Source: Felis catus (lineage: Eukaryota). From it: 64,000 nt of DNA. The position numbers and the translations under genes are program-made. This document shows, piece after piece, positions 6,001 to 53,888 of the stretch. Numbering within the stretch: position 1 is the first letter of the stretch; the number at the start of each line of letters is the position of its first letter. The notes under the pieces were generated by a model that was not told the origin of the DNA, ran no database searches, and saw only the letters and a program-made list of their open reading frames with translations. The stretch spans positions 39,496,001-39,560,000 of the forward strand of contig NC_058368.1 of NCBI RefSeq assembly GCF_018350175.1, given 5' to 3'.

Positions 6001-6674
6001 CCTTGCCCATCATATTTTATGAGGGTATAAGGATTGAAGTTACCTTCTCTGAGTCCATTTAAAAAAAAAATATGTGGCTTTAGCAAATTAAATCCATGAA
6101 CCTCCACCGTCAGTTTAACACATAGTTGACATTGTCTCACAATGTGAAATTTGCTCACCCAAAGTAGAGTGTGATGTAGAGAATAATGAGTTTTTAGATT
6201 GTTTGTTGGCAGAAAAGTGACATGCTGGAAATGATCTGTTCTATGTATCCAATAGTATTCAACTGATGTTCAATGAAATTTAGGCCAGAAAAGATACGGA
6301 AGTCATTAGTAAATGAATTGAACTTGACAGTTCCATATATAAACTGCTCTAAATGTATCTAGATAGAGGCAGCATTAACAAATAAAACCTATTTTTTAAA
6401 AACTTGAACATACCCTTCTTTCTCAACTGTATAAAGCTAGAATGTAAATTGTTGTGTTATAACTAATGTATGCAATAGAGCTGCATAAAAGCTCTAAAAT
6501 TAATAATAATATTAATAATATGATTATTCAAAAAGATAATGTATTCTCTGGTTATTTGAAACCTTCAGTCATTAAGTACATCATCTAATATTTATCTTAT
6601 TGAAACGCGTATGAATAAAATCTGGAAATCACGGCACCTTGTTTATTTCTTCATCCACTGATTTAAAAGAATCA

Positions 6675-8410
6675 TCAAGATTGCTTTGGCTATTTGGGGT
6701 CTTTTCTGGTTCCATACAAATTTTGGGATTATTTGTTCTAGCTCTGTGCAGAATGCTGGTGTTATTTTGATAGGGATTGCATTGAATATGTAGATTGTTT
6801 TGGGTAGCATCGACATTTTAACAATATTTGTTCTTCCTATCCAAGAGCATGGAATCTTTTTCCATTCTTTTGTGTCTTCTTCAATTTCTTTCATAAGCTT
6901 TCTATAGTTTTCAGTGTACAGATTTTTCACCTTTTTGGTTTGATTTATTCCTAGGTATTTTATGGGTTTTGGTGCAACTGTAACTGGGATCGATTGCTTG
7001 ATTTCTCTTTCTGTTGTTTCATTGTTGGTGTACACGAATGCAACTGATTTCTGTGCATTGATTTCATATCCTGCAACTTTGCTGAATTCATGAATCAGTT
7101 ATAACAGTTTTCAGTGGAATCTTCTGGGTTTTCCATGTAGAGTATCATGTCATCTGCAAAGAGTGAAAGTTTGACTTCCTCCTGGCTGATTTGGATGCCT
7201 TTTATTTCTTTGTGTTGTCTAAATACAGAGGCTAAGACTTCCAATACTATGTTGAATAAGAGTGGTGAGATTGGACATCCCTGTCTTGTTCCTGACCTTA
7301 GGGGGAAAGCTCTCAGTTTTTCCCCATTGAGGATGATATTAGCATTGGGTTGTTCATATATGACTTCAAGCTATACTACAAAGTTATAATCATCAAGACA
7401 GTATGGTAGTGGAACAAGAACAGACACTCAGATCAGTGGAACAGAATAGAGAACCCAGAAATGGACCCACAAACGTATGGCCAACTAATCTTTGACAAAG
7501 CAGGAAAGAATATCCAATGGAATAAAGACAGTCTCTTCAGCAAGTGGTGCTGGGAAAACTGGACAGACACATGCAAAAGAATGAACCTGGACCACTTGCT
7601 TACACCATACACAAAAATAAACTCAAAATGGGTGAAATACCTACATGTAAGACAGGAAGCCATCAAAATCCTCCAGGAGGAAGCAGGCAAAAACCTCTTT
7701 GACCTTGGCCTCAGCAGCTTCTTACTCAACATGTCTCCACAGACAAGAGAAACAAAAGCAAAAATGAACTACTGGGACCTCATCAAAATAAAAAGCTTCT
7801 GCACAGTGAAGGAAACAATCAGCAAAACTAAAAGGCAACTGAAAGAATGGGAGAAGATATTTGCAAATGACATATCAGATAAAGGGTTAGTATCCAAAAT
7901 TGATAAAGAACTTATCAAACTTAACACCCAAAAAACAAACAATCCAGTGAAGAAATGGGCAAAAGACATGAATAGACACTTCTTCAAAGAAGACATCCAA
8001 ATGGCCAACCGACACATGAAAAAATGCTCCACATCACTCATCATCTAGGAAATACAAATCAAAACCACAATAGATACCACCTTACACCTGTTAGAATGGC
8101 TAACATTAACAACTCAGGCAACAACAGATTTGGCGAGGATGCAGAGAAAGAGGATCTCCTTTACATTGTTGGTGGGAATGCAATCTGGTGCAGCCACTCT
8201 GGAAAACAGTATGGAGGTTCCTCAAAAAACTAAAAATGGAACTATCCTACGACCCAGCAATTGCACTACTAGGCATTTACCCAAGGGATACAGGTGTTTT
8301 GTTTCGAAGGGACACATGCACCCCAATGTTTATAGCAGCACTATCAACAATAGCCAAAGTATGGAAAGAGTCCAAATGTCCATCGATGGACAAATGGATA
8401 AAGAAGATGT

Positions 8411-8461
<51 letters not shown>

Positions 8462-8849
8462 ATACATAATGGAGTATTACTCGGCAATCAAAAAGAATGA
8501 AATCTTGTCATTTACAACTACATGGATGGAGCTGGAGGGTATTATGTTAAGTGAAATTAGTCAGAGGACAAAAATCATATGACTTCACTCATATGAGGAC
8601 TTAAGAGACAAAACAGATAAACATAAGGGAGGGATACAAAAATAATGTAAAAACAGGGCGGGGGACAAAACATAAGACACTCAGGAGAACAAACTGAGGG
8701 TTATGGGAGGAGTTGCGGGAGGGGGGATGGGATAAACGGGTAAGGGGCACTAAGGAATCTACTCCTGAAATCACTGTTGCACTATATACTGACTAATTTG
8801 GACATAAATTTAAAAAAATAAATAATAAAATAAAAATAATAAAAATAAA
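6675..8849 (+). mobile_element. 5'-truncated, 5'-inverted LINE-1 (older carnivore subfamily)
   Basis: 6675-7361 is ORF2 RT-region sequence on the minus strand ([16 protein letters not shown]...RPQIAKAIL). 7362-8849 is the plus-strand continuation (DFKLYYK..., [12 protein letters not shown]), then 3'UTR and A-rich tail. TSD aaaagaatca (6665-6674) / aaaagaaaca (8850-8859) at a TTT/AAAA site. Carries stops and frameshifts. Confidence 0.95.
8413..8466. repeat. (TA)n(TG)n microsatellite inside the L1
   Basis: Seen directly. Confidence 0.95.
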
Positions 8850-11800
8850 AAAAGAAACACTTCAAAATAATTAGCATCAGTTGCTTTTTATACATGGAAA
8901 TAAAACTTACTTCATCATCTGTGTTAATGATTCAATCTTAAAATTTATGATTCCTTAATTTAATTTTTCAGGACAATTTTTTTTATCATTCTCTACAACT
9001 TCTTTGTATGTTAGAAGATATAATTTAGATAATTGTCTTTGGTTACTTTATATTGTTACCACTAAAACCTTCTCTATTTTGTTATCTTTCTTGAAGAAAC
9101 TAATATACAGGAAGTAAGAATGTTTTGACCAATGTAAAGTGGCAAAAAGTTCTTAGAAAATACTGGTTAGTTCATACCCTATTAAATTTTTCAATTTAGA
9201 TATTGCACTGAGTATCTAGTTGAATATAAATTGATATAAAATAATATGGCTGTAAAGTTTTTCTGTTTTTTCCCTTGGGTGTTTAGTATAACATTAACAG
9301 AGACAGTTAAATATACACAATTATACAATGCTACTTAATTTTACATTTAATAGTTAGTAATTATAATTACAAAGGATGGCCTGGCTAGGGCTGATCAAAT
9401 GTCCTCTTCCCTGGGGAAAGGTGAAATGCAACATTATGCAAATTTATTTCACAGTGGCTTCTTGGTGATTTTTTTTTTCAATTCTTGGGCCTTTTTACCT
9501 CTATCTTCTCTGACATGTGTTCCTTCATGCAGAAATACCCTTCTTTTCTAAATTTTTGGAATCTCTTGGACATTGGCATTGTTTTGATTAATGATCTCAT
9601 TTTTATTCATTCTAGTTAGATCTTGCTGAACAAAAATGTCCTTTTCTTAACTTTAGCAATGACTTTTTATTCTTAAGGTTACCACTGAGGCACTCAAACA
9701 TTACTCTATGCAAGTTCTCAGACACCTTTATAAAACAGAGCTTTAGAACTCAAGGCTCCTAATCAGCAAGTCCTTTCTTTTTGTTCAATAAGAACATTTG
9801 CTATTAAGTAGCCAAAATTTAGAAAGAATTTTACTATCTTTATTTAATCTACACAATAAAATTGGTCTGCTAAATTCAACATTATGATCATCATACAATG
9901 AACACATTATCACTCATAATACCTCAAATCCATAACCATGCATGTATTTGTTCTGTTCATTTTTACTCTAATGCCTTTTTATTTTCAATCATTATATTTA
10001 AAAAGAGGAACTTAATTCCTTACTGTGTCACATAGTGTTTTGGATGTATTAAATATTTTATATGCATTATAGTGAGACATATTTGATATTCTTGTTTGGT
10101 GAAACCAAGGTAAATTGGAAAAATTTGTTTAACCTCTCCTTCAGAGGAATTTACCGAGCATATTCAAAAAGAAGAGAACATGACTGTATTTTCATTGAGA
10201 TATGCACATCTACTTCCCTGTGACCTGATGGAAACATTCAGAGTTGAGTTATATTTTATGTTTGTAGGTCGAACAAAAGGTGTTTTTGATATTATTTAGT
10301 TTTCAGGCACTGTATGTATTCACACCATTAATTATTAATTATTCACAGATTTGCTTAATAATTGTCAAGGCTTTATTCTGAGTTGCACTGGACAGGGGCA
10401 TGTCAATTCATGTCTTTTGTCTGTCTATATCTTCTATGTATATTGCTGCAGTCAAATTGCTCAAGAAACCATGGCATCAATTGTTAAGGTGGCCAAACGA
10501 ACTGCAGTATTCTCTAGCTAATGCATTTTTCACAGAAATGTTACAATATAGTGACTTTGATCTAAAGGCAATTTAAATATAAACAAATTCAATATTAGTT
10601 CAGCTACAATCTGTCAATTATCTTCATATTTCCTATGTGAATACATTTTCTAATATAATACAGCTTCTATGAAACAAATAGTGCTATTTATTTTCATGCT
10701 TTATCTTAAATATAAAGTATTAACTTTCATGTAAGCAATCACTGGTACAGAGAGAACATTGGGAAACATATTGGAAATTAACATAATTATATCAAGAGTT
10801 CCCTAGCGGTCAAGAGCATTAGTACTCAAATTGCATTATGAATATGCAAATCCAATATTTTTGATTTAGGTCATTTGTCACTGGTATCAGAAATTGCAAG
10901 TCACTGCTGGGCTGTCTAAACTTCTGAAAGAGCTTCAGGTGACTGGTGACTTAATTCAAAAGAACCTTCTGGTACATCAACAATCTATCTGAACTGTATA
11001 AGATCTACTGATAGGCAAATTTCCTTTATGTTCTCACTTTGTTTAAGCACTAGCACACAATCTCCCTTTCCATTCGTCTTACGTTTTGGAGTGATGGAAA
11101 GGCACTGAATGAAGAGCAATTCCTCTGAAACTGGTCTTTATCAGAAGCAATTATATTTGGGTAAAATATGAATTCAGAATCAAACTTACATTCAGTTTGC
11201 TCACCTAGCTAGTGCTTATTCCTCTGTTGTGCAAGGATCATTACTTTTAAACTGTGAGTTTAGATCATTAATTTATTAATTTTTAACTGTGATTACAGAT
11301 ATTCAGCTTGCAGCTGGATTTATATAGCATGCAAACACTTGTATAGGGCATAAAATTTGAACAGGTCATAAGTGCAGAAGTGGTGTTGCTAGATACTTAT
11401 CGCATGCCATGACAAATGGGTGCAGCTCAATGAATCGGATATTAGAATGTTATTTTGCAGCATACTTCAGCCACTTCCATAGAGACAAGGCTGCTGTTAG
11501 TTGCATACTAAATATTGTTCTGACTTAGATCATTCCATCCAAATATAGACAGGTAAAAGAAAGGAATTAAACTAATAAGTGATAAATAATTTTCAAGATA
11601 AATAAAAAGAAAAAAACAATATTGGCTACAAATTTGCCTCTCTTCAGGAACTTACTTGTTTCATAACTTTGCCAAATTATATGACCTCTCTAAGATTTAT
11701 TTACAGGATGATTATGAGAATTAAATAGTATTCATAGTAAGCAATTAACAGCATGCTTGGTATATAAAAGATACCAGAGAACACTTAGAAAATAAGTTTA

Positions 11801-28842: not shown

Positions 28843-29054
28843 GGGGCTCCTGGGTGGCGCAGTCGGTTAAGCGTCGGACTTCAGCCAGGTCACGATCTCG
28901 CGGTCTGTGAGTTCGAGCCCCGCGTAGGGCTGTGGGCTGATGGCTCAGAGCCTGGAGCCTGTTTCCTATTCTGTGTCTCCCTCTCTCTCTGCCCCTCGCC
29001 CGTTCATGCTCTGTCTCTCTCTGTCCCAAAAATAAATAAACGTTGAAAAAAAAA
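28843..29054 (+). mobile_element. Young Can-SINE (SINEC_Fc-like)
   Basis: CpG-rich with intact A and B boxes (GGCGCAGTCGG; GAGTTCGAGCC). Perfect TSD ttaaaaattgcacaca (28827-28842 / 29055-29070). Confidence 0.97.
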
Positions 29055-31830
29055 TTAAAAATTGCACACAATTTTTGAGGAAAAATCTGAGATTATATAA
29101 ATAGTATTTTGACCAATCTAGAACCACTAGATTCATATTTTCATTGATTTTGTTTCTAGTGCCAATAATAAAAACATGATATTTAGAAGACTGCAGATTA
29201 GGATGCATTTTTAATTATCCAACAGGCCTACTAAAATGTGAACAGATGGTAAACGCAAATCTTACTTAATTGGAAAACTGGCGTTACGAGAAATAACTAA
29301 GTAGGAAAATATTTGCGTTAAATATACTTAGCAATTGAATTACATCATATTTGTACATATCTGTTTATGAAGGCATCTTTAATATTAAACAGGTTCTGAT
29401 TTTACACTAACCTGTTTTAAAGAGTTAATATTTATTTATGGGGAGAGGGATTGGTAACTAGCAAATTGGAATGGGCACAGTGATATTTAAGAGGATCACT
29501 TGATAATCCCCCACAGATTGGAGCTACCATTCCCAATTCTTTTATTTCCTGTTGCCTAGAAGCAATAGCAAAGTATTTCTTCTCAGTATCATTTGTGGGG
29601 CAGAAGATGATCAAGTTTTATGGATACACATTCTACAGTCTCATTTCCATCAGCTCTGGAATTGTTTCACTGATAAGCACTAACAGGAGGGAGATAGAAG
29701 TAAAATTTATAACCCTCTTCTAAATCTTCGTGATTCCTGTGAACGGCAGCAGATCACTCTTGCCTTGGCTGACACAAACTACCACCATGATCAAAAGGCT
29801 ATAATAATGCTGTTTTATTAAGAAAGATAGCAGTCAAAAAGGTGAGATTCCCAGAGGCAAAGAAATAAATAAAAACAGCAGTAACAGAATGAAAGAAGAT
29901 GGTATAAAGTACTATTTAGGGCAATAACCGAGTAGAATGAGAGATAATATGCAAATCTCGTGCTGGGAATCTGAATTGGATTTTTGTAAACATCAGTTTC
30001 TGACTGTAATATCCCAGTAACTAGTAAATGGTGACCTTAGTATTAACTAAACTGAGTACTGGGGAACACAGAACAGAAAGCTTGCGTCACAACTCCACCT
30101 TAACAAAGATAGGGATGTAGTAGGAAGAGTGGCTACGCTGAAAAGTGCCATTGAGTATGGCTTCACTGGGGTGTCCTGTGTGGGTTCAGCTATCATGTGT
30201 TAATACTATATTTTTCCCAAACAAATTATACATTGTCAAAAGCCTATTAGGAGAGTAGCAGTCCACGCATATATTTTTGGATCGTGGGGGAGTAATAGCA
30301 TCACGTAATCATATGGAGATTCATTAGTTAGTTCATTGTTCAAAGTATGCGATAGTATCAACTAGTAGATCCCCAGAATTCAACTCGGCTTTTTTGAGCT
30401 GAAAATGCACAATATGATGATGTTTCCTTTAAAGGTCATTCACCATTATAAGGCAAAAATTCAAAAAGCCATATTGATTATGAGGGGGACTTCCATCATA
30501 CCTTTAGTCACCTATATTACATTCTGAGGCATTTAGCACAATCAAAATCCATCATTAAGTACTGCTTCAGCCCCGGGCAGTACCTATTTTCGTTTCACAT
30601 TGACTTAAATGTTTTTACTAATTTTTAGTATCCTTGGAAATTGTAGCAGATTTATTTTACAGATAAGAAGACTGAGAACCATTTCATTGGAATAATTGTT
30701 CAGCATCACATTAGTTGATTATCGGATGATAACTAGAAAATAGTTCACCTTGTCAGCCACTCATATCTTAATTACTTGTGTGTTATTGAGCTCCAACTCT
30801 TGTTGAAATGTAAGCTCCACAAGGCCAGGGGCAGGTATGTGTTTCTGTGCTGTACTCTGTATACTTAGCACCTGAAGTACAGATGCTTAATATTGTTTCA
30901 AAGATTGCACGGAGGTTGATATTCATAAGAATTTTTTATCAAAATTGAGATTTGTTACTTAAAAAAAGATCATTGAGATTAACTTTGCTTTGTTTTTATA
31001 TGGTGTCAGTTCCTACATACCTGTTTTAAAAGAACTTTAAAAGCATAAGTATTATTGAATTAAGCTGTAGTCTTGCAGACTTGCAGAATAAAGCATTTGA
31101 ATATTGACATTCCGCAGAGCTGAAAGGTCGAGATTCTTGTGGAGCAAATGCGAACAAGGACTAGAAATGTTAACATGAGCAGGGGACACAACTAAGAGAG
31201 ACCGCATGTTGCAATTATAGACCTCCATCATGCATTTGTAGCCATGAGAACATTTATCATCAATACGTTATCAGTGTGTCTTTTTAAAAAACAATTTAAT
31301 TGCTAATACAGTGGGCAAATTCAGTTATTTTACTTCATAGACTGTCAATGGGCAATTATAAGGCAGTCCTAGGAATAAAGCATTATCTTCCACCAAACCA
31401 ATTACTTAAGTTTAATCTTAGGCCTTTTTCCTCATTTACTTAACTGCCTTGCTATTTATTCTCTCCCTTAAACATAACACCTGATCATTTGTCTCAGTTA
31501 TGTTAAAAAAATGAATTATGTGGGAAGAAATTCAACTAGTTGTTTGGCAAGACAGAGACAAAATAAAACCATCAATTAAATGACAAATATGTAACTTTTC
31601 TAATGTTGGTAGTGGGAGATGGATAGGTTATTTTGAGCTAATGTCTAACATTTTTTTGGTTATCTAGACAATTCTAATGGGTCTGTTTTTACATATGTAA
31701 TTTGAAAACCTCAAATAATAGAAATTTAATGAAATACACCATCTAAACTTGGAAATTTTCAAATTTCAATTAATATTTTAAACATACCTCATGGAGGAAA
31801 TGCAAGGTCATTAAGAATATTCTCTTAGGA

Positions 31831-32759
31831 GAGGAAGCGGCAAGATGGCGGCTTAGGAGGACGCTGGGCTCACCGCGCGTCCTGCTGATCACTTAGATTC
31901 CACCTACACCTGCCTAAATAACCCAGAAAATCGTCAGAGGATTAGCAGAACGGAGTCGCTGGAGCCAAACGCAGACGAGAGGCCCACGGAAGAGGGTAGG
32001 AAGGGCGGCGAGGCGGTGCGCGCTCCACGGACTGGCGGGAGGGAGCCGGGGCGGAGGGGTGGCTCGCCGGCCAAGCAGAGCCCCCGAGTCTGGCTGGCAA
32101 AAGCGGAGGGGCCTGAAGGACTGTGTTCCCACAACAAGCGCGACTTAGCGTCTGGGAGGTCATAAGTTAACAGCTCTGCTTGGAAAGCGGGAAGGCTGGA
32201 GGACAAAGGGAGGGAGAGCTGCTGAGCCCCCTGACGACAGAGCTCAGCTTGGTGGGGAACAAAGGCGCTCGCCAGCGCCATCTCCCCCGCCCATCCCCCA
32301 GCCAAAATCCCAAAGAGAACCAGTTCCTGCCAGGGAACTTGCTCGCTCCGCGCAAACACCCAACTCTGTGCTTCTGTGGAGCCAAACCTCTGGCAGCGGA
32401 TCTGACTCCCTCCCGCTGCCACAGGGCCCCTCCTGAAGAGGATCACCTAAGGAGAAGCGATCTAAGCCTGCCCCTCCTGCCCCCGTGCACCTTGCCTACC
32501 CACCCCAGCTAATACACCAGATCCCCAGCATCACAAGCCCGGCAGTGTGCAAGTAGCCCAGACGGGCCACACCACCCCACAGTGAATCCCGCCCCTAGGA
32601 GAGGGGAAGAGAAGGCACACACCAGTCTGACTGTGGCCCCAGCGGTGGGCTGGGGGCAGACATCAGGTCTGACTGCGGCCCCGCCCACCAACTCCAGTTA
32701 TACACCACAACACAGGGGAAGGGCCCTGCAGGTCCTCACCACGCCAGGGACTATCCAAA
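31831..32759 (+). promoter_or_regulatory. L1 5'UTR internal Pol II promoter (CpG-island-like) with YY1 site
   Basis: CAAGATGGCGG at 31841-31851. This is the only long GC/CpG-rich stretch in the window. Confidence 0.9.
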
Positions 32760-33653
32760 ATGACCAAGCGGAAGAATTCCCCTCAGAAGAATCTCCAGGA
32801 AATAACAACAGCTAATGAGCTGATCAAAAAGGATTTAAATAATATCACAGAAAGTGAATTTAGAATAATAGTCATAAAATTAATCGCTGGGCTTGAAAAC
32901 AGTATACAGGACAGCAGAGAATCTCTTGCCACAGAGATCAAGGGACTAAGGAACAGTCACGAGGAGCTGAAAAACGCTTTAAACGAAATGCATAACAAAA
33001 TGGAAACCACCACAGCTCGGCTTGAAGAGGCAGAGGAGAGAATAGGTGAACTAGAGGATAAAGTTATGGAAAAAGAGGAAGCTGAGAAAAAGAGAGATAA
33101 AAAAATCCAGGAGTATGAGGGGAAAATTAGAGAACTAAGTGATACACTAAAAAGAAATAATATACGCATAATTGGTATCCCAGAGGAGGAAGAGAGAGGG
33201 AAAGGTACTGAAGGGGTACTTGAAGAAATCATAGCTGAGAACTTCCCTGAACTGGGGAAGGAAAAAGGCATTGAAATCCAAGAGGCACAGAGAACTCCCT
33301 TCAGACGTAACTTGAATCGATCTTCTGCACGACATATCATAGTGAAACTGGCAAAATACAAGGATAAAGAGAAAATTCTGAAAGCAGCAAGGGGTAAACG
33401 TGCCCTCACATATAAAGGGAGACCTATAAGACTCGTGACTGATCTCTCTTTTGAAACTTGGCAGGCCAGAAAGAATTGGCACGAGATTTTCAGGGTGCTA
33501 GACAGAAAAAATATGCAGCCGAGAATCCTTTACCCAGCAAGTCTGTCATTTAGAATAGAAGGAGAGATAAAGGTTTTCCCAAACAAACAAAAACTGAAGG
33601 AATTTGTCACCACTAAACCAGCCCTACAAGAGATCCTAAGGGGGACCCTGTGA
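32760..33653 (+). CDS. L1 ORF1p (RNA-binding chaperone), 297 aa
   Basis: ATG to TGA uninterrupted. Coiled coil, RRM ([15 protein letters not shown]) and CTD motifs QARK and YPASLS. Confidence 0.97.
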
Positions 33654-33706
33654 GGAGACAAAGTCCCAGAGACATCACTACAAGCATAAAACATACAGAC
33701 ATCACA

Positions 33707-36700
33707 ATGACTCTCAACCTGTATCTTTCTATAATAACACTGAATGTAAATGGATTAAATGCACCAACCAAAAGACATAGGGTATCAGAATGGATAAAAA
33801 AACAAGACCCATCTATTTGCTGTCTACAAGAGACTCATTTTAGACCTGAGGACACCTTTAGATTGAGAGTGAGGGGATGGAGAACTATTTATCATGCGAC
33901 TGGAAGCCAAAAGAAAGCTGGAGTAGCCATACTTATATCAGACAAACTAGACTTTAAATTAAAGGCCGTAACAAGAGATGAAGAAGGACATTATATAATA
34001 GTTACAGGGTCTATCCATCAGGAAGAGCTAACAATTATAAATGTCTATGCGCCGAATACCGGAGCCCCCAAATATATAAAACAATTACTCATAAACATAA
34101 GCAACCTTATTGATAAGAATGTGGTAATTGCAGGGGACTTTAACACCCCACTCACAGAAATGGACAGATCATCTAGACACACGGTCAATAAAGAAACAAG
34201 GGCCCTGAATGAGACATTGGATCAGATGGACTTGACAGATATATTTAGAACGCTGCATCCCAAAGCAACAGAATATACTTTCTTCTCGAGTGCACATGGA
34301 ACATTCTCCAAGATAGATCATATACTGGGTCACAAAACAGCCCTTCATAAGTTTACAAGAATTGAAATTATACCATGCATACTTTCAGACCACAATGCTA
34401 TGAAGCTTGAAATCAACCACAGGAAAAAGTCTGGAAAACCTCCAAAGGCATGGAGGTTAAAGAACACCCTACTAACGAATGAGTGGGTCAACCAGGCAAT
34501 TAGAGAAGAAATTAAAAAATATATGGAAACAAACGAAAATGAAAATACAACAATCCAAACACTTTGGGACGCAGCGAAGGCAGTCCTGAGAGGAAAATAC
34601 ATTGCAATCCAGGCCTATCTCAAGAAACAAGAAAAATCCCAAATACAAAATCTAACAGCACACCTAAAGGAACTAGAAGCAGAACAGCAAAGGCAGCCTA
34701 AACCCAGCAGAAGAAGAGAAATAATAAAGATCAGAGCGGAAATAAACAATATAGAATCTAAAAAAACTGTAGAGCAGATCAACGAAACCAAGAGTTGGTT
34801 TTTTGAAAAAATAAACAAAATTGACAAACCTCTAGCCAGGCTTCTCAAAAAGAAAAGGGAAATGACCCAAATAGATAAAATCATGAATGAAAATGGAATG
34901 ATTACAACCAATCCCTCAGAGATACAAACAATTATCAGGGAATACTATGAAAAATTATATGCCAACAAATTGGACAACCTGGAAGAAATGGACAAATTCC
35001 TGAACACCCACACTCTTCCAAAACTCAATCAGGAGGAAATAGAAAGCTTGAACAGACCCATAACCAGCGAAGAAATTGAATCGGTTATCAAAAATCTCCC
35101 AACAAATAAGAGTCCAGGACCAGATGGCTTCCCAGGGGAGTTCTACCAGACGTTTAAAGCAGAGATAATACCTATCCTTCTCAAGCTATTCCAAGAAATA
35201 GAAAGGGAAGGAAAACTTCCAGACTCATTCTATGAAGCCAGTATTACTTTGATTCCTAAACCAGACAGAGACCCAGTCAAAAAAGAGAACTACAGGCCAA
35301 TATCCCTGATGAATACGGATGCAAAAATTCTCAATAAGATACTAGCAAATCGAATTCAACGGCATATAAAAAGAATTATTCACCATGATCAAGTGGGATT
35401 CATTCCTGGGATGCAGGGCTGGTTCAACATCCGCAAATCAATCAATGTGATACATCACATCAACAAAAAAAAAGAGAAGAACCATATGATCCTGTCAATC
35501 GATGCAGAAAAGGCCTTTGACAAAATCCAGCACCCTTTCTTAATAAAAACCCTTGAGAAAGTCGGGATAGAAGGAACATACTTAAAGATCATAAAAGCCA
35601 TTTATGAAAAGCCCACAGCTAACATCATCCTCAACGGGGAAAAACTGAGAGCTTTTTCCCTGAGATCAGGAACACGACAAGGATGCCCACTCTCACCGCT
35701 GCTGTTTAACATAGTGCTAGAAGTTCTAGCATCAGCAATCAGACAACAAAAGGAAATCAAAGGCATCAAAATTGGCAAAGACGAAGTCAAGCTTTCGCTT
35801 TTTGCAGATGACATGATATTATACATGGAAAATCCGATAGACTCCACCAAAAGTCTACTAGAACTGATACATGAATTCAGCAAAGTTGCAGGATACAAAA
35901 TCAATGTACAGAAATCAGTTGCATTCTTATACACTAACAATGAAGCAACAGAAAGACAAATAAAGAAACTGATCCCATTCACAATTGCACCAAGAAGCAT
36001 AAAATACCTAGGAATAAATCTAACCAAAGATGTAAAGGATCTGTATGCTGAAAACTATAGAAAGCTTATGAAGGAAATTGAAGAAGATTTAAAGAAATGG
36101 AAAGACATTCCCTGCTCATGGATTGGAAAAATAAATATTGTCAAAATGTCAATACTACCCAAAGCTATCTACACATTCAATGCAATCCCAATAAAAATTG
36201 CACCAGCATTCTTCTCGAAACTAGAACAAGCAATCCTAAAATTCATATGGAACCACAAAAGGCCCCGAATAGCCAAAGGAATTTTGAAGAAGAAGACCAA
36301 AGCAGGAGGCATCACAATCCCAGACTTTAGCCTCTACTACAAAGCTGTCATCATCAAGACAGCATGGTATTGGCACAGAAACAGACACATAGACCAATGG
36401 AATAGAATAGAAACCCCAGAACTAGACCCACAAACGTATGGCCAACTCATCTTCGACAAAGCAGGAAAGAACATCCAATGGAAAAAAGACAGCCTCTTTA
36501 ACAAATGGTGCTGGGAGAACTGGACAGCAACATGCAGAAGGTTGAAACTAGACCACTTTCTCACACCATTCACAAAAATAAACTCCAAATGGATAAAGGA
36601 CCTAAATGTGAGACAGGAAACCATCAAAACCTTAGAGGAGAAAGCAGGAAAAGACCTCTCTGACCTCAGCCGTAGCAATCTCTTACTCGACACATCCCCA

Positions 36701-37531
36701 AAGGCAAGGGAATTAAAAGCAAAAGTGAATTACTGGGACCTTATGAAGATAAAAAGCTTCTGCACAGCAAAGGAAACAACCAACAAAACCAAAAGGCAAC
36801 CAACGGAATGGGAAAAGATATTCGCAAATGACCTATCGGACAAAGGGCTAGTATCCAAAATCTATAAAGAGCTCACCAAACTCCACACCCGAAAAACAAA
36901 TAACCCAGTGAAGAAATGGGCAGAAAACATGAATAGACACTTCTCTAAAGAAGACATCCGGATGGCCAACAGGCACATGAAAAGATGTTCAGCGTCGCTC
37001 CTTATCAGGGAAATACAAATCAAAACCACACTCAGGTATCACCTCACGCCAGTCAGAGTGGCCAAAATGAACAAATCAGGAGACTCTAGATGCTGGAGAG
37101 GATGTGGAGAAACGGGAACCCTCTTGCACTGTTGGTGGGAATGCAAATTGGTGCAGCCGCTCTGGAAAGCAGTGTGGAGGTTCCTCAGAAAATTAAAAAT
37201 AGACCTACCCTATGACCCAGCAATAGCACTGCTAGGAATTTATCCAAGGGATACAGGAGTACTGATGCATAGGGCCACTTGTACCCCAATGTTCATAGCA
37301 GCACTCTCAACAATAGCCAAATTATGGAAAGAGCCTAAATGTCCATCAGTTGATGAATGGATAAAGAAATTGTGGTTTATATACACAATGGAATATTACG
37401 TGGCAATGAGAAAAAATGAAATATGGCCTTTTGTAGCAACGTGGATGGAACTGGAGAGTGTGATGCTAAGTGAAATAAGCCATACAGAGAAAGACAGATA
37501 CCATATGGTTTCACTCTTATGTGGACCCTGA
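33707..37531 (+). CDS. L1 ORF2p (endonuclease/reverse transcriptase), 1274 aa from the first ATG
   Basis: EN motifs LNVNG, LQET, GDFN and SDH; PIP-box-like KSWFFEK; RT motifs QGCPLSP and FADD; C-terminal [18 protein letters not shown]. The ORF track start at 33650 is a GTG, and the first ATG is at 33707. Confidence 0.98.
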
Positions 37532-37794
37532 GAAATTAACAGGAACCCATGGGGGAGGGGAAGGAAAAAAAAAAAAAACAGGTTAGAGTGGGAGAGAGCC
37601 AAAGCATAAGAGACTCTTAAAAACTGAGAACAAACTGAGGGTTGATGGGGGGTGGGAGGGAGGAGAGGGTGGGTGATGGGTAATGAGGAGGGCACCTTTT
37701 GGGATGAGCACTGGGTGTTGTATGGAAACTAATTTGTCAATAAATTTCATATAAAAAAAAATAAAATATAAAATAAAAAAAAAAATAAATAAAA

Positions 37795-37960
37795 TTTAAA
37801 ACACTGTAAACATGAGAAAAAAAATTTAGTCAAACAAAACAAAATGTGTTATTGAATATTTTTTTTCAAAAATAGACTTTACTCTATCTCAAACAAAAAA
37901 TAATGAGATTAAAATATTTTATAATGATGAATTCTTTCCTAAATAAAGTGCTCAAAATAC
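37795..37960 (+). other. 3'-transduced flank of the source L1
   Basis: Non-L1 sequence between the first A-rich tail (about 37751-37794) and a pure A27 (37961-37987), with AATAAA at 37942-37947. Lies inside the TSDs. Confidence 0.9.
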
Positions 37961-39399
37961 AAAAAAAAAAAAAAAAAAAAAAAAAAAGAATATTCTCTTA
38001 GGAAAAAATAATATTCTATTAGATATATAAAAGCAAAGTGCAATATATGTTACAAAATAAACTCTGATAAATTTATTTTAAAGTCCTTTGAATTTTTTTT
38101 GAAATTGTATAATACATTCCTCACTCTAGCAGTATATATGCAAGCCTTTATATTTTTTCTTGGAGGCGAATATTAAGGAATTCAAATCATCAGCCTGTTT
38201 ACCATGTTTTTCTGTGATTTATCAGGGAAGTCAACAAACCACTTCAGTTTTCTTCTGGCAGTAAAATAGGAAACGAGTGTCCAGGGAACATAAATCTACT
38301 GTGACTTTTCTATCCAATTTCAGTTGTTCTGCCACCATTGATTCCAATGTGTCACACTGTGTGAGAACAATGGAAATTAACACTATGTTGGGACTGCCAA
38401 ATTCATTTCACACAACAGTAATCGCAATAATAACCAAAATAATATATAATCACCCATGAGAATAAGCACAATTCCATGAATCAGAGTCCTAAAGAAATCA
38501 GTCTCAGTCAAAAGAAAATCAGACAAATGTTTTTAAAGAGATTAATGATTCTACCCCATTCCTTGTTTTGCTGGTTTTCATGAGCATCTGTTACGTGGGA
38601 ATACATTTTGTTTTACAGGTTTTTTTTGTTGTTGCTGTTGTTGTTGTTTTATCAGGCAGATGTTTGTATTTTCTCATCCTAGTAATTGGAAGAGCAATTA
38701 GAGACAATGAGAAGGCAACAAAGAGGAACTTTGCCAAAATCTCTTGGTTAAGCTGAATTTCCAACAAACTACCTATGAAATATATTTTACTCTATTTGGC
38801 TAAGCAGAATATTCAAGAACACTTCATTTTTACCCTTTGGCAAACAACCACTCTGGCTGTGAAGTAGGTGAAAGGTATTGTCAGTTTTTGAACAAAAAAA
38901 AAAAGTTTAATCGGGATAAATCCAATTTATGGCAGCCTGTGAAATTTCTCTTCAGTTTAACCTTTGTATTTTTATTTTCTCTTCTTTCATTTATATTCAT
39001 CTATAAATCTTTTTTTTTATTCTGATGCAAAGCCTTCATGAGCCTCAGATTCAATGTATATTAAATGCCATATTGTAGTTCCATATCCAGGCCATCTCAT
39101 ATCCCAAAATTGTATCACTGCTCCTCAAAGAGAACGTTGAGCACATGGAAATATGTATTCCAAGAGTCCTTTCTGAAGGATATTATGAAATACTGTGCTA
39201 AACCTGAAACAGCTCAGCACAATATACAAATATTGGGTTAGGCAAATTTATAAACAATATTAAGATATATTCTTATATTGACTAGAGAGAGCAGCTGACG
39301 AATTTATGAGAGAAATAAATACAAAATGCTTGATATTGGGAAGTGTACACATTCAGTCTAAGGAATATTTTCTTGAATACCTCAAAATATTAGCCTTGC

Positions 39400-50541: not shown

Positions 50542-50702
50542 AAAAAGCATATTTTGTGATTAAACCAGGAATGTGTGATTCTTATCACATTGTTTCTGTA
50601 AAAATTAGAGTGGAAATTTTTATTTTTATTTTTAAACCAAAAAAAGTGTGAAGCATAAATCAACATTGCATTCTTGTGTACTTTTTATCCTCATTACTTT
50701 TC

Positions 50703-50921
50703 TTTTTTTTTTAATTTTTTTTAATGTTTATTTATTTTTGAGAGAGAGAGACAGAGTGTGAGCAGGGAAGGGGCAGGGAGAGAAAGACACAGAATCCGAA
50801 GCAGGCTCCAGGCTCTGAGCTGTCAGCACAGAACCCAACGCAGGGCTCGAACCCACAAAACGTGAGATCATGACCTGAGCTGAAGTTGGAGGCTCAACTG
50901 ACTGAGCCACCCAGGCGCCCC
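50703..50921 (-). mobile_element. Can-SINE
   Basis: Perfect TSD atcctcattacttttc (50687-50702 / 50923-50938). Confidence 0.96.
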
Positions 50922-52267
50922 AATCCTCATTACTTTTCATAAGTACACAGGACAGATCAGTGTTAATATAATTTTACATGTAAAATTCTGGAATGTGTTA
51001 TGTACATGTAATATAGTACTTCAGTGCATTACTTAGGACATTATCATTAATCCATCCTCTTCACTTCATTCAGAAGTCTGGGTAAGCATGGCTACTTAAT
51101 TGATGATGTCACTGAGAAATGTTGACTTTTGACCCCATCTGTATGCCATGACATGTTTGAAGCAACCATATTATATGTTGCACTGTATTCCTCTCAGATT
51201 ATCTTGGAGCTTTGTGAACAGTTGTGATTGTATTTCCATAAACATGTGCTTACTGGATAATCAATTTCATTTTAGCAATGAAAATCTTCTTTGACTTGTT
51301 AAAAAAAGGAGGGGGGTCAACATTAAAGATCAAAGTAGCAGAGTGCAAACTGCAGAGGAGTTTCAATAATAATTTTGACCAATTGCTAGGCATAGAACAA
51401 CCTGTAAAATAAATCAAATTAACAAATATATTTAAGCAACTATAATAAAATATTTTCAATATTTAAGAATCCAGATTCAAAATGATATAATATTAAAATC
51501 ACCGTTTGATCACTATGTAATTCAGCAATTTGATGCACTCATGTTATAAAATGGCTTTTATTGTAAAACACTTCTGAGCTCTTTTGCAAGATATTCTATT
51601 ATTTTCTTACATACTCTGCATTAAGCCCAATAGGTCTATAAAATGCCTTTATCCAGTGGTGATAGAGACCATAAAACCAGCTGAATAACTGAACATTTCA
51701 TTTCACTTCACCACTAACTAGTCTTATAAAGATCACTGAGGGAATGCCATTTTTATATTTTTTCCCAATACTAAACTTCTTTTCTGAAATTTTAATGCCT
51801 CTTTTGTGAAAGATTACTTTAAATCCCATTTAAAGCTATTAGATTTCTCTGATGAATATTTTAGAGATATGTCTCATGACACTCTTAAAATTAAAAAAAA
51901 AACAATACTAAGGGAAAATATCTTTCATGTCAAGAAACTGAATCATTCAAAGTCATTTTAATCAAGGCATATCTCATGTATAATTTTAGATATCAATCCA
52001 CAAAACTTTATAAAGCATTTTTATATACGAATGACCAATTTGTGAAAAGTGGAATGAACGTTGTAGATAAATCTAAAAGATACATAAAAATTATTTTACA
52101 TAAAACATCAAATCATTATTCCATGCTGTTTACATTTATTTTTTTGAAAATAAACATGTTAGTTCATATTTGACAAAGACAAGCATGAAGCTTTATGCCA
52201 TCAAGGATACAGATATGAGTCAAAAAAATCATACATGATGACTACATTTCAGTGTTGACTAAGTCAC

Positions 52268-52635: not shown

Positions 52636-52794
52636 CAAATTTGCATGAAAAAAACCTATTACTGTAAATTTAGTCTACTCTTTGAGCTAGAGAAGTGTGC
52701 ATCTCTAAGTGTCTGCCTGATGCACATAACTTTATGAACAAAATTAATAAGGCAGCTTTTTATTCAAACCACTAAGAAGCATAGATTTACCTTT

Positions 52795-53202
52795 TGCATT
52801 CGTCTGAGTCCTTCAGAAAAACAAAATAAATAGGACACACATGCACACACACACACATACATGTACACATATAGTGAGGATGAGTCATCTCAAGATCTGC
52901 AGTCAATGACCAAGGCAAACTGATGGTATATTTCCAGTCTAAATCTGAGTCTGAGGGCAAGACCAGGGTCCCAGGTCAAAGACAGCAGAGAGAGCAAATT
53001 ATCCCTTACTCAGCCTTTTGTCCTATCTAGGCCTTCACAGATTGGATGAGATCCAGTGACATTGGAGAAGGCAAACTGGTTTACTCAGTTAACGAATTCA
53101 GATGTTACTCTCACTCAGAAATACCCTCATAGACACAGTCATGAAAATTTTTAACCAAATATCTGGGCCCACTCAAGTTGACACATAAAATTAACCATTA
53201 TA
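52795..53202. mobile_element. ERVL solo LTR (MLT2-like)
   Basis: Starts tgcattcgtctgagtccttcaga with (CA)n, and ends caagttgacacataaaattaaccat. 5-bp TSD CCTTT (52790-52794 / 53203-53207). Confidence 0.85.
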
Positions 53203-53589: not shown

Positions 53590-53628
<39 letters not shown>

Positions 53629-53888
53629 GTGTATGTGTGTGTGTGTATCCTATTTGTTTTTCTGGAGGACTCAAACTAATACAAAAGGTAAATCTATGCT
53701 TCTTGGTGGTCTGAATAAAAAACTGCCTTGTTAATTTTGTTCATAAAGTTATGTGCATCAGGCAGACACTTAGAGATGCTGACAGTGTGGAGCCCGAGGC
53801 AGGGGTAGATCTCACCAACTGTTGAGATCATCACCTGAGCCAAAATCAAGAGTCGGACACTTAACAGGCTGAGTCACCCAGGCACCCC
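53494..53888 (-). mobile_element. Can-SINE split by a 190-bp insertion
   Basis: Tail half at 53494-53588 and head half at 53779-53888. TSD cactgatct (53485-53493 / 53891-53899). Confidence 0.9.
53589..53778 (-). repeat. Inverted duplicate of 52699-52870
   Basis: Reverse complement reads catctctaagtgtctgcctgatgcacataactttatgaacaaaattaa..., matching from 52700 onward. Flanked by a duplicated ctgacag. Confidence 0.95.

Follow-up and report, generated by a model that had tools for sequence, protein, structure and literature searches.

Intact copies of long interspersed element 1 (L1) drive insertions of short interspersed elements (SINEs) and retrocopies, and structural variation, in mammals. 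We describe here one such copy from the domestic cat, found in a stretch of 64,000 nucleotides of the Felis catus genome (contig NC_058368.1, positions 39,496,001 to 39,560,000). This whole stretch is called the window below, and all coordinates are counted from its first base. The class and the mechanism of the element are textbook ones: the copy is young and adds one more, quite ordinary, member to a known class. Its most informative feature is a segment of 166 base pairs (bp) that is not L1 and lies inside the target-site duplication (TSD); this segment was absent from the first-pass annotation of the same DNA.

The class is the one known in L1Base 2 as FLI-L1 (PMC5210629). Its members, like the cat copy, are full length, keep their open reading frames (ORFs) intact and have the same domain order. 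In 2016 this database held one FLI-L1 for cat versus 264 for dog, with counts tied to assembly maturity (PMC5210629), and for this reason the cat count probably does not reflect true rarity. Protein collections also suggest that intact felid copies are not rare. The ORF1 protein (ORF1p) of our copy gave 955 protein matches, and the best among the 120 matches listed was the Felis catus cluster P0001 (UniRef, 234 members) at 98% identity, its representative being identical at 291/297 residues. To this near-identical ORF1p the present copy adds a few apparently private residues and the 166-bp 3′ segment.

The canine element L1_Cf (PMC7980453, PMC13141329) shares with the cat copy its carnivore L1 body, the TSD, the poly(A) and, probably, a read-through source tag; its ORF2 protein (ORF2p) is 75% identical to that of the cat copy. 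Canine copies are known to be dimorphic and one of them jumps in HeLa cells. The dog element has been shown to mobilise SINEs in trans (PMC7980453), and the transductions described in dogs are mostly 'parentless' (17/18 and 24/27; PMC7980453, PMC13141329). The human L1HS/L1RP belongs to another lineage, with an ORF1p of 338 amino acids (aa) against 297 aa in the cat copy. Human ORF2p (PDB 8uw3 and others) aligns with the cat protein from end to end (residues 4-1273), the catalytic residues being in register and the human number being that of the cat copy plus one. Human I538 is matched by T at cat residue 537.

Structure of the insertion

The insert measures 6,155 bp and lies between two exact direct repeats of 18 bp, which repeat comparison placed on the forward strand at 31813-31830 (left TSD; its last three bases are possibly shared with the L1 5′ end) and 37986-38003 (right TSD). 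They are identical at 18/18 positions, occur only twice in the window and cannot be extended on either side. The perfect TSD of the first-pass annotation was thus confirmed, and the empty-site sequence proposed there agrees with both flanks. A chance origin of the repeat was ruled out, as the 16 letters outside the A-run would match at a fixed place with a probability of about 7e-10. The nick site on the bottom strand reads TCTT/AA, which comes close to the TTTT/AA consensus of the L1 endonuclease. The hallmarks of target-primed reverse transcription are all present, namely the 18-bp TSD, a tail of 25 A and this endonuclease-type site. Another position of the right TSD, at 37795, was ruled out because the left flank has no match there. 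The TSD motif recurs with 78% identity at 38007-38024, 21 bp past the right TSD, so that the target already held a short imperfect tandem repeat before the insertion.

The L1 proper ends at about 37794, and the TSD encloses both the L1 and the 166-bp segment. The 3′ untranslated region (UTR; 37532..37752, +), delimited from the sequence and the alignment with an older L1 of the window, contains a G-rich tract and its own AATAAA at 37739. It is followed by a first, interrupted A-rich tail (37753..37794, +), presumably the tail of the parent element that was copied through. The 166 bp that come next (37795..37960, +) are about 80% AT and include an AATAAA (37942..37947, +); 13 nt separate the end of this signal from a second poly(A), which is pure (37961..37985, +). 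We call this segment non-L1 because the older L1 (7362-8857) aligns through the 3′UTR and the first A-tail and stops at 37793-37801, and because the window has no other copy of it. A pure tail of 27 A had been annotated earlier. The run is indeed pure, but it has 25 A, because the first two A's of the right TSD had been included in it, and the 166 bp of non-L1 DNA separate it from the L1 3′ end.

Of the three features of a partnered 3′ transduction two are present here, non-L1 DNA inside the TSD before the final poly(A) and a poly(A) signal in the carried DNA; the third would be a match of the segment at another locus, just past an L1 or an empty L1 site. The order L1, A-tail, flank DNA, poly(A) signal, poly(A), TSD is that of the read-through model (PMC13141329, PMC7980453). 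From this arrangement we consider it likely that 37795-37960 is a read-through 3′ transduction which tags a parent L1. According to this scheme, a parent L1 elsewhere in the genome would have been transcribed from its 5′UTR promoter, and RNA polymerase II would have passed the parent's own AATAAA (the one at 37739 in our copy) and its A-rich tail. The read-through RNA would have received its poly(A) at a second AATAAA, which lay some 150 nt further on in the flank of the parent. ORF2p would then have nicked the AT-rich TCTT/AA site, and the full RNA would have been copied to its 5′ end, leaving the duplication of 18 bp. The locus as a whole is likely to be a full-length L1 of the Felis side that arrived through target-primed reverse transcription together with a read-through segment, some 0.1-3 million years ago.

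Several observations weigh against a read-through origin of the segment. No second copy of it was found in the 64-kb window. In metagenome contigs a 39-base pattern from the segment had 0 matches, and the segment was absent from 21/21 fetched metagenome loci, which were 44-82% identical and none of them felid-like; these blanks have little weight, because such collections are not expected to cover the cat genome. In dogs, no more than some 1.8% of the dimorphic L1s have a mappable transduction, the share being higher among long copies (PMC13141329). Finally, since the 3′ end could be compared only with that of the older L1, which is 76% identical, the segment might be a tail common to a whole subfamily.

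This last point leads to the idea that an L1 sub-lineage has inherited the segment as an extension of its 3′ end, an old transduction that marks a subfamily and not the direct parent. Transduction lineages with multiple offspring are known in dogs (PMC13141329, PMC7980453) and the 3′ comparison set includes no young felid L1, while the older L1 of the window lacks the segment; we consider such an origin quite unlikely. The 166 bp could also derive from a host mRNA whose 3′ end was added by template switching or by a later short retrocopy into the A-tail of the L1. An AATAAA at a distance of 13 nt from a pure tail would be equally typical of an mRNA end, and the segment is AT-rich, as many 3′UTR ends are. 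Against this, no second TSD was found around the segment, the element's own TSD adjoins the pure tail, and an intact L1 A-tail precedes the segment, as read-through predicts, so that we give an mRNA origin little credence.

The 5′UTR of an L1 acts as an internal RNA polymerase II promoter, and we presume this role for the 929-bp leader of the cat copy (31831..32759, +; 62.5% GC and 48 CpG by base composition). At +11 from its start lies a motif (31841..31851, +) which we take to be of YY1 type, just where the first-pass annotation had placed a YY1 site. This motif at the head of a GC-rich leader suggests that the 5′ end is complete. The CpG observed/expected ratio of the leader is 0.53 overall versus 0.15-0.20 in the flanks. 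The claim that its CpGs are largely unmutated can be upheld only in a loose sense, the ratio being high in the first 310 bp (0.83-0.86) and low in the 3′ half (0.27-0.40). The lone sense ATG of the leader is at 31845, within the YY1-type motif. On the opposite strand the leader has an ATG frame of 115 aa (31934-32281, -) in a position like that of primate ORF0; such a frame can be a chance product of GC-rich DNA.

Reading frames, lineage and age

Both frames are open, as had been stated earlier. ORF1 (32760..33653, +; 297 aa) encodes a coiled coil, an RNA recognition motif and a C-terminal domain, according to Pfam and structure alignment. Its Pfam domains are Transposase_22 (PF02994) and Tnp_22_dsRBD (PF17490), and the protein can be aligned to human ORF1p structures. 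After an inter-ORF spacer of 53 bp (33654..33706, +) comes ORF2 (33707..37531, +; 1,274 aa), for which Pfam and alignment gave an APE-type endonuclease (EN), a reverse transcriptase (RT) and a CCHC domain; here the Pfam domains are Exo_endo_phos (PF03372) and RVT_1 (PF00078), and the motif CX3CX7HX4C is found at residue 1129. The EN, RT and C-domain motifs reported at first pass proved to be in place, 14/14 of the checked EN, RT and CCHC residues agreeing with the most frequent residue among 120 aligned rows. Neither of the two exact protein sequences (0/2) was found in the protein collection. In viral contigs there was no confirmed relative of ORF1p (0/64 candidates) or of the ORF2p C-terminus (0/2).

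An antisense frame overlaps ORF1 at 32957-33529 (-), with 190 codons from stop to stop and 127 aa from ATG. It is shorter than the reverse ORFs of roughly 1 kb reported in dog and tiger L1s (PMC5203782) and could reflect the codon usage of ORF1.

How many residues are peculiar to this copy? In the 120-row alignments, ORF1p deviates at 0/101 conserved columns and ORF2p at 36/662. Those ORF2p deviations that fall within felid-type rows (27/27) are all common to at least one such row, and four further ones are common to a row of 84% identity. T150 of ORF1p seems to be private, with A in 27/30 felid-like rows, yet in the wider alignment 21 rows have T. T537 of ORF2p seems private as well: this column has I or M in 118/120 rows, and the other 14 positions of the surrounding RT block are each at least 95% conserved. 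In the human protein K541, a fingers contact, is three residues past the position of T537 (PMC10830420). We are less sure of M398, where lion also has M, and of F216, T257 and E259, for which there is only one comparator row. At least two and up to six amino-acid changes are thus apparently private.

For the lineage of the copy, ORF2p was compared with four partial lion proteins (97-98% identical) and three metagenome proteins taken as cat-derived (95-99%). Lion ORF1p rows, among the matches listed, showed 88% and 77% identity at full length and 95% in one partial row. With lion ORF2p fragments reaching 97-98% as well, the age of the copy does not follow from high identity by itself, and 98% protein identity was ruled out as proof of extreme youth. 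Individual sites are more telling of descent. At ORF2p positions 752, 789, 790, 795 and 808 the copy agrees with the metagenome protein P0244 against 4/4 lion rows, and at 552 with 3/3 metagenome rows against 3/3 lion rows; the lion rows differ from each other by 0.3-1.1%. In proteins, then, the copy is 98-99% identical to cat-type rows and set apart from lion at six sites. From these patterns we infer that it belongs to a Felis-side L1 lineage and expect it to be absent at the matching Panthera site; the insertion is probably younger than the Felis-Panthera split.

The private changes at the protein level correspond to an estimated DNA divergence of 0.13-0.33%, the low estimate reaching 0.02%. 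If all nine differences comparable only with lion are counted, the upper bound is 0.60% (0.34-0.99). At an assumed rate the age would be about 0.5-1.3 million years and at most about 2.4 million years, with wide intervals; if some of the changes were inherited from the parent, the copy would be younger. Both ORFs would stay open with a probability of 0.32 at 0.2% divergence, 0.06 at 0.5% and 0.004 at 1%, given an assumed indel rate. The perfect TSD is weak as age evidence, since it would survive 1% divergence with P=0.70. The earlier description of the insertion as recent is supported by the open ORFs and the residues distinct from lion. That of a very young copy is borne out only in part, given the two to six apparently private changes.

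Some circumstances count against this dating. It rests on few protein rows, and the metagenome proteins (P0009, P0244, P0315 and P0354) are assumed to be cat-derived. The clock rate, 2.5e-9 per site per year, is an assumed one. The nine differences in ORF2p 858-1199 can be compared only with lion, and the remaining five ORF2p deviations (56, 132, 160, 1259, 1271) may be either shared or private.

Activity and polymorphism

The first-pass annotation went further and suggested that this copy may still be active and may be absent in other individuals; in its strong form this would be a very new insertion, competent to this day and variable within the cat population. The pure tail of 25 A and the perfect TSD speak for this, as do the open frames, the catalytic residues, intact wherever they were checked, and the divergence estimate that goes down to 0.02%. 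In dogs, intact L1s can retrotranspose in cultured cells and dimorphic ones are numerous (PMC7980453), and 15/20 polymorphic 'fit' human L1s were active (PMC10883270). Against it stand the private changes, above all T537 in its near-invariant RT block, which would be the main caution on activity. ORF2p is highly sensitive to mutation, with wild-type activity kept by only 16% of trialanine mutants (10.1101/721357). The human base rate is also low: among 142 cloned intact L1s of CHM1, 29/142 were active, while 77/142 were fixed and inactive (PMC10883270). Taken as a whole, such a brand-new competent element is improbable in our judgement. As to its parts, judged from the sequence, presence/absence polymorphism among domestic cats is a real possibility, falling somewhat short of an even one, and present retrotransposition activity is unlikely. 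It is more doubtful still that the copy segregates in domestic cats, still jumps, and carries a 166-bp tag leading to an undescribed, repeatedly firing Felis source L1.

The opposite view is that of an older, fixed copy, dead but with open frames and common to small cats. The upper bound of 0.60% (0.34-0.99), about 2.4 million years at the assumed rate, leaves time for it, and in humans the majority of intact L1s combine fixation with inactivity (PMC10883270). Both ORFs would be found open with a chance of 0.06 at a divergence of 0.5% and of 0.004 at one of 1%, which argues against such an age, and so does the long and pure tail; sharing with Panthera is disfavoured by the lineage residues. 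This alternative overlaps with the explanation that we prefer, a Felis-side L1 with a read-through segment, and differs from it on age alone; we regard the greater age as unlikely, though it deserves to be kept in mind.

In a run index the segment with the right flank was found at 0.96-0.98 in 20 of 24 listed runs, and at 1.00 in none. The runs have one organism label and come from 10 studies, with five flagged as a possible source. These shares were rejected as evidence of the empty site: the junction makes up about 1.2% of the words and the segment 3.0%, and one single-nucleotide polymorphism (SNP) accounts for 0.7%. Because SNPs give shortfalls of similar size, the shortfall is not attributable to an empty site. 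No report of an assayed felid L1 or of cat L1 transductions was found among the titles listed from the open-access literature, most subscription papers being outside its coverage, and the accessible parts of PMC8006817 and PMC13756887 have nothing on cat L1 activity.

Surroundings and significance of the copy

The window is AT-rich, with about 34% GC in the flanks of the element. The older L1 used above as a comparator is a broken 3′ fragment in two parts, 6672-7366 (-) and 7362-8857 (+), which are 76-82% identical to the young copy; the arrangement of 6672-8857 looks like a twin-priming inversion. About 13 SINE copies (for example, 28843-29061 and 50701-50923) are 67-83% alike, and we take them to be feliform Can-SINE-like. 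Outside this SINE cluster there is an inverted repeat of about 175 bp with 87% identity (52699-52869 and 53606-53779). Among the 13 frames of at least 120 aa no long non-L1 frame has the look of a host gene, short exons not having been searched for, and an intronic position of the insertion is possible. A comparison of the window with Rfam gave 0 matches.

For dogs, an active element has been cloned and sources of transductions have been mapped; no equivalent for cats was found among the open-access titles listed. In this respect the probable transduction tag offers a handle on the source locus and on the mobility of the lineage in cats. If the copy is active, its ORF1p and ORF2p would be made from one RNA, which would be self-mobilised in cis and could pass the tag on, and Can-SINEs would be mobilised in trans. 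Should the element prove active and segregating, and its tag lead to a source L1 that fires repeatedly, functional assays of felid L1s could well begin with this clone, and a transduction lineage of cat L1s could be traced with its help.

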